29,461 nt of DNA, from the IMG/VR virus record IMGVR_UViG_2565956711_000012; one strand, 5' to 3'. How positions within the stretch are numbered: position 1 is the first letter of the stretch; the number at the start of each line of letters is the position of its first letter. This document shows, one piece after another, positions 1-29,461 of this stretch. Made by a program: the position numbers and the translations under genes. This stretch comes from a virus (taxonomy: Duplodnaviria; Heunggongvirae; Uroviricota; Caudoviricetes). Under the pieces are notes generated by a model. It ran no database searches. It saw nothing but the letters and a program-made list of their open reading frames with translations, and was not told the origin of the DNA.

Positions 1-321
1 TTCTCCCAAACCAAGGTTTGAGAGAGCCGTCGCGATTGCCGCCGCACCATCTGCTTTAATGTCGCCAAATGGATTGGAGCGACTCAGAAACAGCTTTTTG
101 AGAGCGGCCAGAATCTGCGTATTGTCCATCTTGTCAGGATCAAGCCCCGCAGCTCTGAGAATATTAATTAGCTCACTTTGAATGATATTAAACCAGTCAG
201 GACCGGGGAACGTCGGGGGAACACCGTTTCCACCTTCGGTAAAAAAAAGCTCTGTCTCACTGGTGACAGGAGACGGTTGTGGCATAACCGGAACACCGGT
301 CGAATTATCTACGTGATACAT
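1..321 (-). CDS. tail fibre protein, N-terminal 107 codons only (gene runs off the window start)
   Basis: Manual minus-strand translation from ATG at 319-321 (overlapping the upstream stop as TGATG) is open to position 1: MYHVDNSTGVPVMPQPSPVTSETELFFTEGGNGVPPTFPGPDWFNIIQSELINILRAAGLDPDK... This resembles conserved phage tail-fibre N-termini. Absent from the ORF track because it is truncated by the window edge. Confidence 0.6.
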   Translation of the reverse strand, partial: MYHVDNSTGVPVMPQPSPVTSETELFFTEGGNGVPPTFPGPDWFNIIQSELINILRAAGLDPDKMDNTQILAALKKLFLSRSNPFGDIKADGAAAIATALSNLGLGE

Positions 322-911
322 CAGTTATCTCCTGAAGAATAAAAATATTCGTATGCTGTGCCACCGAGACGGTATTTTGTCAGCACACACTCCAGTTCTC
401 TTGCCCGTTCACTCAGAAGCGGTGTCATGACGTTATCGATACAGGTAAAACGTCCGCCGCTTATACCGATCACATCAATCTGTAACGTCCAGCGATAACG
501 GGCTGGATAAAGGGGATACATGCAGCTACGCATGCAGTGGTGAGGCAGAAGGACAGTTACCCGGATAGTAAATCCAAGCGCGGCAGCCACCGCTTCAATC
601 TGCCACGGGGAAAGGCCACCTTTGCGGTGATACTTCTCCACGACAGCACGACGTCGGTCTTCTACAGTACCGCTTAACTGCCCACACTCCGGCAGTTCAA
701 GGTATTCCTCCCATTCTTCCAGTAGCATAAATGTTGTTTCTGGCCGCATCTCCGGTAGCAGGTTTTCTGCATCAAATTCCGTCTGACTTAAACGTCTGGC
801 TAACGCCCGTAAAAAAAGGTTTAAATCACCATCCTCATCGCGTGACCACGCTTTGCCACGTGGCATGACCTGCCATAAAGCGCCCAGCCATTCATCTACA
901 CTGTGGGCCAT
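321..911 (-). CDS. tail/baseplate protein, Mu gp48-like (DUF2313, P2 gpI-like)
   Basis: 196-aa ORF immediately downstream of the baseplate J-like gene, start overlapping it; position and size match Mu gp48. Confidence 0.7.
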   Translation of the reverse strand: MAHSVDEWLGALWQVMPRGKAWSRDEDGDLNLFLRALARRLSQTEFDAENLLPEMRPETTFMLLEEWEEYLELPECGQLSGTVEDRRRAVVEKYHRKGGLSPWQIEAVAAALGFTIRVTVLLPHHCMRSCMYPLYPARYRWTLQIDVIGISGGRFTCIDNVMTPLLSERARELECVLTKYRLGGTAYEYFYSSGDN

Positions 912-1972
912 GTCAGCACTCCGATAGTGATAAGTTCATTCTGAGCACAGGGAATGTCAGCGGTCAGATTCAGCTTGTAATCCGTCACGCCAGATGCGGT
1001 GCCGATAGCAGTACGAATCGCTGAAATGGGTAACGTTTGTCCTGGTTGTAGCGTCTTCTGAAGCGTCAACAGGCGGGACTGGACAGCTTTACGCGTGGCA
1101 GACGTATCCGGTGTTATGTCGATAACCATATTGACGGGACGGAGCACCAGTTCAACGGGCCAGACTTCTATTCCTCCAGGTTTACCAACCCATACGCCAG
1201 TCGCCGGGTCGGTATGACGGAAAAGGTAATCTTCCATATTTTTTCGGTCCTGATATCCGGGGGTAATCACTGAACGATCGTCATAAACCCATGCCAGTCC
1301 GATTGTGCAGGGGCCATGCCAGGCATCAAATGCCCACGCCCGACTGACACCAGCCATTTCTCGTGCCCAGATGACATAGTCATGCACAGCCCCACCAACA
1401 GGGGGATTGCGTTTACGGAATAAAAGCCGGTCAAGCAATTCAGGAACTGGCTCAATATCCGCACCACCGATGATGCCCCCCGTACCCGTTAAACCAATAC
1501 TTTCCACGCCGGGAACGGGGGACAGTAAGGTCAGGCTTTCACCTTCCGGAAGGTTTCCTGACGCGCCGGCATCGCTGGCCTGAATGGTTACAGTCATGAC
1601 CCCATCTACAGGAACGCCGGAAGTCGTCACGGCATAAACAATACCGGTAGCGGTTTGCATCTCCATATCTTCCGGCAGCGGTGTATTCCCTTTAAATACC
1701 GCCGGCCCCGTAGCAAACGTGGCCTGTTTTCTGATGACGCCTTCGCTGGCCGCAGTCTCAATGATGGTTTCATCATCAGATTTAACAGACGGAATAATCT
1801 GGTCTTTAATCCAGCTCTGATGGTCGTATAAATCACGAACCTGATTACTGAATGAGGTATTAAGCGCTTTCTCAACGCCCACTGGCGGAAGTCTTTGCAG
1901 CCCCAGTTCAAAGGCAATATCTTTTTCGCCGTCAGTAATAAGTTTGCGCAGTGCGGGAACGTTATAAGGCAT
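896..1972 (-). CDS. baseplate J-like protein (Mu gp47-like)
   Basis: 358-aa ORF; size and position after the gp46-like gene; overlapping start/stop with neighbours. Confidence 0.75.
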   Translation of the reverse strand: MPYNVPALRKLITDGEKDIAFELGLQRLPPVGVEKALNTSFSNQVRDLYDHQSWIKDQIIPSVKSDDETIIETAASEGVIRKQATFATGPAVFKGNTPLPEDMEMQTATGIVYAVTTSGVPVDGVMTVTIQASDAGASGNLPEGESLTLLSPVPGVESIGLTGTGGIIGGADIEPVPELLDRLLFRKRNPPVGGAVHDYVIWAREMAGVSRAWAFDAWHGPCTIGLAWVYDDRSVITPGYQDRKNMEDYLFRHTDPATGVWVGKPGGIEVWPVELVLRPVNMVIDITPDTSATRKAVQSRLLTLQKTLQPGQTLPISAIRTAIGTASGVTDYKLNLTADIPCAQNELITIGVLTWPTV

Positions 1973-2414
1973 TAGCGGTGGACTCCCAGCGTTTACTTAT
2001 TTCAATCCGGAGCGTTGTTTTATCCGGGCGGGTAAGAATGACAATAAAATTAATCCGATCACTGCCGCTTATCGTGGCCGTCACCGTTGCATTACGTGCA
2101 TATCCGGAACGTAAAAGAGGCTGCATGGAGAGCAGCGCATAATCTTCCACTCGCATTCTGACTGTTTCCGTCAGTTTTTCGCGGTCCAGTAGCCAGAGTT
2201 TTGACCCCCACGGATAATCACTGAAGGTGTCACCGGGCCAGCCTCGCGGGTCAGATGAATTATCGGGGATAATGTCATCGGTATCAGCACGGACGTCGGT
2301 GAAAAGACAAATCAGAACCAGCGTGACCATACCTTCATCACGCGATAAACCATCATGGTTAATTGTCAGTTCACCTCTGGAGAGTTGATTATTCCAGCTG
2401 ATACCAATAGTCAT
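1962..2414 (-). CDS. baseplate protein, Mu gp46-like (gpW/gp25-like)
   Basis: 150-aa ORF between gp45-like and J-like genes; 4-bp overlap with upstream gene. Confidence 0.7.
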   Translation of the reverse strand: MTIGISWNNQLSRGELTINHDGLSRDEGMVTLVLICLFTDVRADTDDIIPDNSSDPRGWPGDTFSDYPWGSKLWLLDREKLTETVRMRVEDYALLSMQPLLRSGYARNATVTATISGSDRINFIVILTRPDKTTLRIEISKRWESTANAL

Positions 2415-28505: not shown

Positions 28506-28738
28506 GCAACCTCTTTAACAGTCAGATTCTGATAACGCGAAGGCCATATCTCTGATGGCTCCATGTTGAGAAAGTCAGCGATAATTTTCTCCCCTTTGGG
28601 CCAGTGGTGACGGAATACGTTACGTAATGTTGATTCCGCTAGCCCATGACAACGGGATAACTGACTGGTCGTCATTCCGCGTTTTCTAATCGCTGCTTTG
28701 ATGTCTTCAGGGTGCCAGTCTTGGCTTTTGGTCATCAT
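28502..28738 (-). CDS. ner: Ner DNA-binding early regulator
   Basis: 78-aa ORF; DWHPEDIKAAIRKRGMTTSQLSR...HWPKGEKIIADFLNMEPSEIWPSRY matches the Ner family; AAGGA 9 nt upstream of ATG. Confidence 0.8.
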   Translation of the reverse strand: MMTKSQDWHPEDIKAAIRKRGMTTSQLSRCHGLAESTLRNVFRHHWPKGEKIIADFLNMEPSEIWPSRYQNLTVKEVA

Positions 28739-28969
28739 TCTGCGATCCTTAAATATTTACTCGTTGCGGTGAACTAAACTGCTCACCTTTACGTGTAAAA
28801 ATATAGCACACAAAAAATCGAATTCAATCTTTTTGTCAGTCTTTTGTCGGTTTAATCAAATCTAAATAAATCGAATTTAAGTCTTTGATTTTTGTGAAAG
28901 CATGTTTTTACACCATAAAAAATCGAATCGAATTTTTTGTGAGCCAGAAAAAATCGGAAACAGGAGGTA
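28739..28969. promoter_or_regulatory. early operator / divergent promoter region between ner and c (Mu O1-O3 and enhancer equivalent)
   Basis: 231-bp AT-rich non-coding region with two repeat families: AAAAATCGAAT (about 28812, 28866, 28918 and a degenerate copy near 28950) and CTTTTTGT(C/G) (about 28829, 28840, 28888, 28933). Confidence 0.6.
28798..28829 (-). promoter_or_regulatory. candidate sigma-70 early promoter (Pe) driving ner-A-B
   Basis: On the minus strand: TTGAAT, 16-nt spacer, TATATT, placed about 60 nt upstream of the ner ATG. Confidence 0.4.
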
Positions 28970-29461
28970 ATGATGAATGAGCAAACTTGGTTTACGGCTC
29001 AAGAGTGTGCGGGGATGCCCGGATTCCCAAGTGGAGTATCCAATGTACGTAAGCAGTTAGAAAAACTCGCAGAAGGGTTGGACGGAGTGCGGCGGAAACG
29101 AGGAGGGACTAAAGCCACGGAATACCATATATCGATATTGCCTGCACGGACCCAAAATTATCTTGGGTATAGCAACAAAGGACAGCCATCTATGGGAGTT
29201 GAGGATTTCAAGACAAAAAGTGGCTTAGCAAATGATGAGAAGCAAGCACTCTGGATGATGATTTATCAGGGGATGACTGAAGCCCAACGTGAAGCTGTCA
29301 TGGAGATATTTATCACTGGTGGCTTAAAGATGCTTATGCCTGCGGTGCTTGAGTTATCTGATTCAAATCCGGTCCGACAGAAAGAGATTTTCGGACAATG
29401 TGATTCCATTGAAAAGGATAGCCCAGCGTCGAACGTAAGCACGCAAAACAAGGCTGGCTGA
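28970..29461 (+). CDS. c: repressor c (Mu Repc-like)
   Basis: 163-aa ORF divergent from ner; strong AGGAGG SD 5 nt upstream; N-terminal 60 aa are clearly paralogous to the MuA N-terminus (WxxxxECxGxPGFPxxxSNxRKxLExLxxGxxxxRRKRxGTKAxEYHISxLP). Confidence 0.7.
   Translation: MMNEQTWFTAQECAGMPGFPSGVSNVRKQLEKLAEGLDGVRRKRGGTKATEYHISILPARTQNYLGYSNKGQPSMGVEDFKTKSGLANDEKQALWMMIYQGMTEAQREAVMEIFITGGLKMLMPAVLELSDSNPVRQKEIFGQCDSIEKDSPASNVSTQNKAG

Follow-up and report, generated by a model that had tools for sequence, protein, structure and literature searches.

Bacteriophage Mu (AF083977), together with D108 and SfMu, carries its genes in the order c, ner, A and B, followed by the head and tail genes and then by the tail-fibre gene S, an invertible segment and gin. 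Its termini read TG...CA, its insertions are flanked by 5-bp duplications with an established preference for N-Y-(G/C)-R-N targets, and an N-terminal domain common to repressor and transposase is one of its hallmarks. The Gin/gix system of Mu is in turn one of the Din family of inversion systems, along with Cin/cix of P1, Hin/hix of Salmonella and Pin/pix of e14. The current study concerns a stretch of viral DNA of 29,461 nucleotides (IMG/VR record IMGVR_UViG_2565956711_000012; hereafter the window, meaning this whole stretch), in which the same gene order and, together with its flanks in related genomes, the same termini, duplications, target preference and shared c/A domain can be recognized. 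Very probably, the window represents the inner part of an intact-looking Mu-type transposable prophage of Escherichia coli, approximately 32 kb in length, and extends from c into S, of which it contains the first 107 codons. An original prediction made from the letters of the window had already placed it inside a Mu-like prophage. Comparison with related genomes confirmed that the element is an ordinary Mu-like prophage and that the predictions for its flanks hold, apart from points of cargo and distance taken up below. The genes of the window are consequently to be regarded as phage genes on a randomly inserting transposable prophage and not as host genes, with nothing exotic in the unsampled ends. 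Fixing the true ends of the element and the cause of the window limits likewise gives context to other findings on this DNA.

The evidence for this reading begins with a complete chromosome. Megablast against complete E. coli genomes returned a match over the full window on the ECONIH5 chromosome (NZ_CP026202.1, 441436-470896, reverse strand), which aligns without gaps and with 12 mismatches in 29,461 bases (99.96% identity). The matching region lies wholly inside a 31,978-bp prophage (record 441147-473124) inserted in narX, where the RefSeq annotation lists a run of phage genes between a truncated narX and, at the opposite end, a narX remnant followed by narL. Because the window is wholly inside a prophage of this type, it contains no host DNA, attL or attR, just as had been anticipated; the accompanying claim that the invertible segment also lies entirely outside was too strong, as the left crossover site occupies positions 1-26. 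In narX, the left junction reads ...GCGTCC GCCGT directly followed by TGACTAGTGACAG..., and the right junction reads ...GATTGGCGCGCGGCA directly followed by GCCGT CGTGAATCAGG..., which together define TG...CA termini, a 5-bp duplication and the prophage length of 31,978 bp. Thus, ECONIH5 supplies both the ends and the invertible segment that are absent from the window. Its left end (5'-TG) is found 289 bp beyond window position 29461 and its right end (CA-3') 2,228 bp before position 1. The former distance agrees with the expectation of a left end within a few hundred bp, although the MuA sites expected with it are not found there by a Mu site matrix, whereas the roughly 6 kb thought necessary before position 1 proved to be an overestimate, the absent stretch being about 2.2-2.6 kb.

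Relatives gathered by exact look-up of the gp48-like and c proteins of the window show the same prophage in many assemblies with unrelated host neighbours. All 23 junctions read in other genomes (10 left, 13 right) break at identical bases beside unrelated host genes. The 10 left-junction insertion sites carry an identical c gene, and at each of them 5'-TG abuts unrelated host DNA. Flanking genes differ at every locus and include narX, dctM, flgD/flgE, nrfE and a TonB-dependent receptor gene. As predicted, 5-bp target-site duplications are present, and this was the case in all six prophages that could be read at both ends (GCCGT, GCCGC, ATCAC, CCAGC, GCGCC and CTGGC). Furthermore, 22 of 28 target pentamers fit N-Y-(G/C)-R-N, compared with 12.5% expected (p = 2e-15); L005 and L030 are the two ends of a single insertion, so that 27 of these pentamers are independent. 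From these features we infer that the MuA-like DDE transposase and the MuB-like ATPase would cut the element at 5'-TG...CA-3' and insert it almost anywhere in the chromosome, each insertion presumably producing a 5-bp target duplication with the N-Y-(G/C)-R-N preference.

The window limits have a more mundane origin. Scaffold KI530596.1 (GCA_000488015.1; L024), retrieved through exact look-up of the N protein of the window, has no mismatches to the window over the 15,366 nt compared, and a run of 1,910 N begins one base past window position 1. Beyond this gap the scaffold continues with C, then TTCTCCCAAACCAACGTTTCCGATAA, gin, 65 bp, ...GCGCGCGGCA (ending ...GCGGCA) and finally host sequence GCGGGCGCATTG..., from the 3' end of nrfE immediately ahead of nrfF. 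The S gene call of the scaffold is 107 aa, corresponds exactly to window 321 to 1 and is cut by the N gap. The window therefore starts at position 1 because a gap of 1,910 N takes the place of the invertible segment in its source scaffold, and both window limits are technical, namely gene-call boundaries: the stop codon of c and the last full codon before the gap. In strain 504838 the empty nrfE site reads ...GATGATT GCGGG CGCATTG..., and hence the expected duplication of the source insertion is GCGGG. The source prophage should span approximately 2,065,039-2,097,400 in record coordinates, with its left junction expected near 2,097,400 as ...GATGATTGCGGG joined to TGACTAGTGACAG... (in Mu orientation ...GTTGATGATTGCGGG joined to TGACTAGTGACAG), running into nrfE. 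The same nrfE insertion was found in none of the 5,426 complete E. coli genomes, as judged by coverage of the junction query. The source and ECONIH5 prophages differ in insertion site (nrfE versus narX) and in 12 bases, two of which fall within the inner crossover half-site, with six others in gene N. The latter six lie within 96 bp (window 4983-5078) and separate the window from ten relatives (L003-L012, the ECONIH5 prophage included), and this cluster has the look of recombination over a short patch. The viral contigs and species-representative genomes searched contain no exact match to a 95-nt pattern with the gene N variants specific to the window. The kilobases on either side of the patch are identical among the window and these ten relatives.

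At the other extremity of the gene order, the tail-fibre region has the organization of a Din-family inversion system. An inverted repeat flanks the region between S and gin in ECONIH5, and its outer parts align with gixL and gixR of Mu. The original prediction had called for inverted gix sites around the variable part of the tail fibre, and these were found, the left one already within the window. Positions 1-12 of this left site are the inner half-site, which belongs to the invertible segment, and positions 15-26 are the constant outer half-site. Its partner follows the gap of the source scaffold in inverted orientation (TTCTCCCAAACC AA CGTTTCCGATAA), and both sites align to Mu gix. We take the crossover site to be close to the hix/cix-type consensus, with a central AA as in hix. 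The 13 relatives compared are invariant in the outer half-site and in all sequence external to it, whereas divergence sets in at the centre of window 1-26 and extends inwards. The centres of the two sites are 1,492-2,180 bp apart in the relatives. Between window position 1 and the right end, the relatives carry the rest of S, a tail-fibre assembly gene, an inverted second S/U pair and a Gin-like serine invertase, in agreement with the prediction that the remaining tail fibre, the invertible segment and gin lie upstream of position 1; in the source scaffold, this was observed for the partner site and gin. The invertase, which the source (L024 17359-17913) shares with every relative, is 184 aa in length with Pfam Resolvase and HTH_7 matches and is 79% identical to Mu Gin.

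The evidence for both orientations comes from relatives, the source segment being unassembled. L004/L012 and L010 share a segment (2,019-2,022 bp) with 100% identity but in opposite orientations, and in either orientation S is an intact open reading frame (ORF), with lengths of 239 and 321 aa for the two states. As different genomes thus contain one 2,022-bp segment in the two possible orientations, the inversion is real and the switch operates as it does in Mu. The shared features with the Din family thus include a 184-aa serine invertase adjoining the segment, inverted 26-bp sites each made of two 12-bp half-sites with an identical central dinucleotide, alternative tail-fibre C-termini and chaperones arranged head to head, and both orientations in nature; the differences are that the segment is shorter than the 3 kb G segment of Mu and that cassettes have been swapped as modules between relatives. 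Presumably, the Gin-like invertase flips a segment of 1.5-2.2 kb between the two inverted 26-bp sites, so that the constant beginning of S would be fused to either of two C-termini, both of which have a dedicated assembly chaperone, with a switch in host range as the outcome. Half-segments also recur in different combinations and orientations between the crossover sites of L003-L012, L023 and L025; for instance, half of the L003 segment corresponds to L007 in inverted orientation (91.5%), as does half of the L005 segment to L008 (93%). This exchange of half-segments among relatives indicates that both inversion and the swapping of cassettes shape the evolution of the host-range module. The invertible cassettes of ECONIH5 probably differ from those of the source.

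The repressor and transposase offer a second set of parallels to Mu. Residues 6-57 of c are 58% identical to residues 5-56 of the transposase A of the same element (52 residues, E 2e-18), and the best tblastn match of c in Mu is the N-terminus of MuA. Between c and ner lie three 25-nt A/T-rich repeats (AAAAAATTCGATTCGATTTTTTATG and variants; approximately 28809-28833, 28862-28886 and 28914-28938) with a spacing of 52-53 bp, of which the outer two form an inverted pair. By analogy with Mu O1-O3, these are likely candidate operator/enhancer sites for the domain common to c and A, and c, through an N-terminal DNA-binding domain like that of the transposase, may hold lysogeny via these repeats. 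The ends of the element are less readily compared to Mu. The left end has direct repeats with a 20-bp spacing, GGAAACAA(A/C)CGGGAG, whereas the right end has an inverted pair, AAACGCGA... In a MAFFT alignment of the ends with those of Mu, informative for the R1 region only, right-end positions 6-27 match Mu R1 at 14/22, which gives the outermost 27 bp of this end a resemblance to R1. Of the seven matches in 49 kb to AAACGSGA, a pattern picked after looking, three lie no more than 85 bp from a terminus. Conservation of the left 82 bp extends to relatives that have other immunity regions. The end repeats GGAAACAAACGGGAG (left) and ATCAAAACGCGA (right) are candidate transposase-binding sites.

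When the 46 annotated proteins of the ECONIH5 prophage were compared with Mu by tblastn, the matches rose in Mu order (ner, A, B, kil, gam, gemA and mor, then terminase, portal, F, I, T, sheath, tube, N, P, gp45-48 and S), in accord with the collinearity from c to the tail fibre inferred originally. The Mu G homologue, placed after the head genes, is the only displaced gene. Precomputed Pfam matches agree with the Mu assignments (Table 1). In the ORF listing of the window, nearly all long ORFs are on the minus strand, with one plus-strand ORF of 162/163 aa, c, whose stop codon is at the last base. Despite this collinearity, the element differs from Mu in several respects. Apart from Gin, its proteins are 21-67% identical to those of Mu; it is about 32 kb as opposed to 36.7 kb; it encodes a GH108 endolysin in place of the Mu SAR endolysin; the constant part of S comprises about 99 codons versus 169 in Mu; the Mu MuA-site consensus is undetectable at its ends; and it lacks com, mom and a separate C. 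With regard to the last of these, its single Mor/C-family regulator is 64% identical to Mor and 37.5% identical to C, and tblastn against Mu found no separate homologue of the late activator C in the whole prophage. Searched against the whole of Mu, the F-I intergenic gap is most similar to 17898-17950 (74% over 54 nt, E 5e-5), adjoining the annotated gyrase cut site at 17879/80, which suggests that this central intergenic block, resembling the region beside the strong gyrase site of Mu, may be a candidate counterpart of that site.

Table 1. Features of the window, in order of position, with tblastn identities to Mu where obtained.
Feature	Position	Strand	Identity to Mu	Remarks
Left crossover site (gixL-like)	1-26			TTCTCCCAAACC AA GGTTTGAGAGAG; central dinucleotide at 13-14
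5' constant part of tail-fibre gene S	1-321	minus	39%	107 codons, continuing off the window into the invertible segment; ECONIH5 residues 1-109 align with the start of Mu S
Baseplate module	321-5366	minus	24-41%	Mu order; Pfam Phage_Mu_Gp48, Baseplate_J, GP46, Phage_Mu_Gp45, Phage_GPD, DNA_circ_N
gp48	321-911	minus	34-41% (gp45 to gp48)
gp47	896-1972	minus	as gp48
gp46	1962-2414	minus	as gp48
gp45	2411-2953	minus	as gp48
P/gp44	2944-4035	minus	35%
N, DNA circularization	4035-5366	minus	24%
Tail module	5366-9597	minus
Tape measure	5366-7267	minus
Tail assembly chaperone	7354-7749	minus	42%
Tube	7753-8109	minus	31%
Sheath	8119-9597	minus	43%
Head completion/head genes	9597-13898	minus		order: DUF2635, 207-aa protein, G homologue, gp36 homologue, 197-aa protein, T, I
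207-aa protein	9766-10389			portal-protein label in PHROGs
Mu G homologue	10386-10928	minus
Major head protein T	12045-12938	minus	36%
Protease I	12942-13898	minus	26%
F-I intergenic gap	13899-14107			209 bp; at 49% of prophage length
Packaging genes	14108-18615	minus
Minor head protein F	14108-14896	minus	35%
Portal H	14889-16457	minus	28%
Terminase large subunit	16457-18040	minus	47%
gp27-like small subunit	18037-18615	minus	45%
Late small genes and lysis	18605-21868	minus	gp26 59%; gp18 67%	include gp26 homologue, DUF2730 (Mu gp25 family), TraR/DksA zinc-finger protein, gp18 homologue, GH108 endolysin
TraR/DksA zinc-finger gene	19859-20065
GH108 endolysin	21278-21868	minus
Middle/early accessory region	21979-25481	minus
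Orphan 169-aa ORF	21979-22488	minus
Mor	22492-22902	minus	64%
GemA	22899-23426	minus	51%
218-aa protein	23404-24060	minus
Gam	24150-24677	minus	57%
83-aa protein	24685-24936	minus
96-aa HTH protein	24949-25239	minus
Kil	25242-25481	minus	54%
MuB-like AAA+ target-DNA activator	25486-26424	minus	48% (47.7%)	Pfam AAA_22, Phage-MuB_C
MuA-like DDE transposase A	26520-28505	minus	51.6% over 651 residues	661 aa; Pfam HTH_Tnp_Mu_1, HTH_Tnp_Mu_2, DDE_2, Mu-transpos_C
ner homologue	28502-28738	minus	52%	78 aa; Pfam HTH_35
Divergent ner-c control region	28739-28972			234 bp; three 25-nt A/T-rich repeats and one promoter-like site (minus strand, 28827-28800)
Repressor c	28973-29461	plus		162 aa; stop codon is the last window base; weak Pfam HTH_Tnp_Mu_1

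Several observations weigh against the reading of the window as the interior of an intact Mu-type prophage. The left junction of the source scaffold was not recovered by look-ups of the c or DUF2730 proteins, the 289-bp figure being that of relatives with an identical c gene, and the invertible segment of the source is represented by an N gap. A weight matrix built from L1-L3 and R1-R3 as located in AF083977, which scores those six sites at 15-26 bits, finds no site at either end of the prophage, its best matches being internal and at most 14 bits. Similarity between the left and right ends is likewise not above that of shuffled sequences (best 13/18; shuffles averaged 11.7 and reached 14). 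Finally, the element is known here as sequence alone. The last of these points lends itself to a rival explanation, in which the prophage is a defective, immobile remnant that merely looks complete. The absence of an isolated phage of the lineage from the phage collection, the absence of a separate C homologue and the S gene of L009, which is not called as a single ORF, could also be counted in favor of such a remnant. However, the Mu-homologous genes of the window are all full length by tblastn. Copies with at least 99.9% identity occupy more than 10 chromosomal sites and have intact duplications, an indication that the element moved recently. One invertible segment is also found in both orientations, and some genomes contain two copies of the prophage. 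Taken together, we regard a defective remnant as unlikely.

It is also conceivable that the element is a hybrid that combines Mu-like genes with other termini, an integrase of the tyrosine or serine type and attachment at a tRNA or another fixed site. The sole ground for this would be that the window itself lacks ends. Conversely, a tRNA search found none in the window, the gene calls of the whole ECONIH5 prophage and of 30 related loci include no integrase, the invertase being the only recombinase, and the insertion site differs in every genome, with flanks that are 5-bp duplications and not an att core. The combination of integrase and tRNA attachment, the very arrangement that the original prediction had regarded as contradictory to a Mu-like element, was therefore not seen; the junctions refute a hybrid, whose probability is close to nil. 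A narrower alternative concerns the source strain only, in which the invertible segment might be truly absent or rearranged instead of lost to an assembly gap, as there is only an N run between its two sites. The 1,910 N are an estimated gap, though, and this estimate falls within the 1,492-2,180 bp range of the segments of the relatives. Moreover, the contigs flanking the gap both break off one base into inverted copies of a single 15-nt sequence, CTTCTCCCAAACCAA, as expected if the assembler met an inverted repeat or a population of mixed orientation, and a second short-read contig (L026) similarly ends 13 bases past the crossover site. A true absence is accordingly very unlikely, somewhat more so than a defective remnant, and an intact-looking Mu-type prophage with an unassembled invertible segment remains by far the preferred interpretation.

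Two suggestions regarding cargo did not survive comparison with complete ends. Any mom-like modification gene was expected upstream of position 1; however, Com and Mom yielded no tblastn match below E 0.3 in the ECONIH5 prophage, in L023 or in the source L024 (its invertible segment unassembled), the latter two being loci that include the stretch from gin to the right end together with flanking host DNA. Only 65 bp separate the gin stop codon from the right terminus, which leaves no room for com/mom. In addition, ORFs lying entirely within the 289 bp between c and the left end are at most 37 aa. The idea that the unsampled parts may carry further accessory genes was thus not borne out, none being visible, and the stretches beyond the window are without extra cargo, unassembled cassettes aside.

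The prophage is seen in hundreds to thousands of public assemblies, but close relatives occur in only 5 of 5,426 complete E. coli genomes. In a large collection, exact copies of c, the gp48-like protein and the DUF2730 protein are recorded in about 1,000, 840 and 4,900 blocks, respectively. Megablast of 25 kb against 50,697 phage records gave no DNA-level match to Mu, D108 or SfMu, and judged by nucleotide similarity to Mu over most of the genome, the element would fall outside the genus Muvirus. The best transposase matches in the phage collection are those of Mu, D108 and SfMu at 51.6%, and the collection holds no close isolated phage. Its only DNA-level match is Klebsiella phage Kp4866-3 (OK490420.1, flagged UNVERIFIED), which is 74% identical over the structural genes, collinear and 53-89% identical at the protein level, but differs in its early genes, in a transposase that matches over the N-terminal domain only and in the lack of a gin match. 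The portions of the literature covered by a search contained general papers on Mu-like phages and, within those portions, no description of this lineage. It is possible, and we suggest it only tentatively, that the prophage belongs to a separate, not yet isolated Mu-type lineage with end sequences unrelated to the 22-bp Mu consensus, no detectable left-right symmetry beyond TG/CA, no separate C activator and no mom. If so, it would be a natural comparison case for the assembly of MuA-type transpososomes on divergent, asymmetric ends. For Mu specialists, the interest would lie in a Mu-type lineage lacking mom and C, with divergent ends and freely exchanged tail-fibre cassettes.

Within the family, the immunity region is mosaic. 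Two chromosomes, GCA_901456255.1 (L005/L030 and L006/L014/L031) and GCA_014725915.1 (L032 and L033), each hold two related Mu-like prophages at different sites, with different repressors and near-identical structural genes; the repressor variants of the family are 150, 162-164, 173 and 199 aa in length.

A number of further observations concern individual genes and contigs. The window has no Rfam family match. Nine unannotated proteins have no Pfam match and seven of the nine, searched with PADLOC, gave no match there; with PHROGs, the only families returned were of unknown function, except for the portal-protein label of the 207-aa protein. The 169-aa ORF between Mor and the endolysin has no Pfam, PHROGs or PADLOC match and is situated in a stretch of low G+C content (0.43). 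Its slot holds 107-aa or 172-aa genes in relatives, with an adjoining insertion sequence transposase gene in L031, and looks like a variable accessory slot. The commonest contig size class for the proteins of these prophages is 20-50 kb. One contig, L025 (Logan SRR18150552_126, 32,663 bp), consists by calculation of the prophage and about 30 bp of host DNA at each end, an extent that fits a k=31 assembly graph if occupied and empty sites, or multiple insertion sites, coexist in the sample. In the host DNA of ECONIH5 (L001, 446-4189), where the prophage interrupts narX, the neighbouring narG is annotated as a pseudogene with an internal stop, and the respiratory nitrate system of this strain may therefore be doubly damaged.

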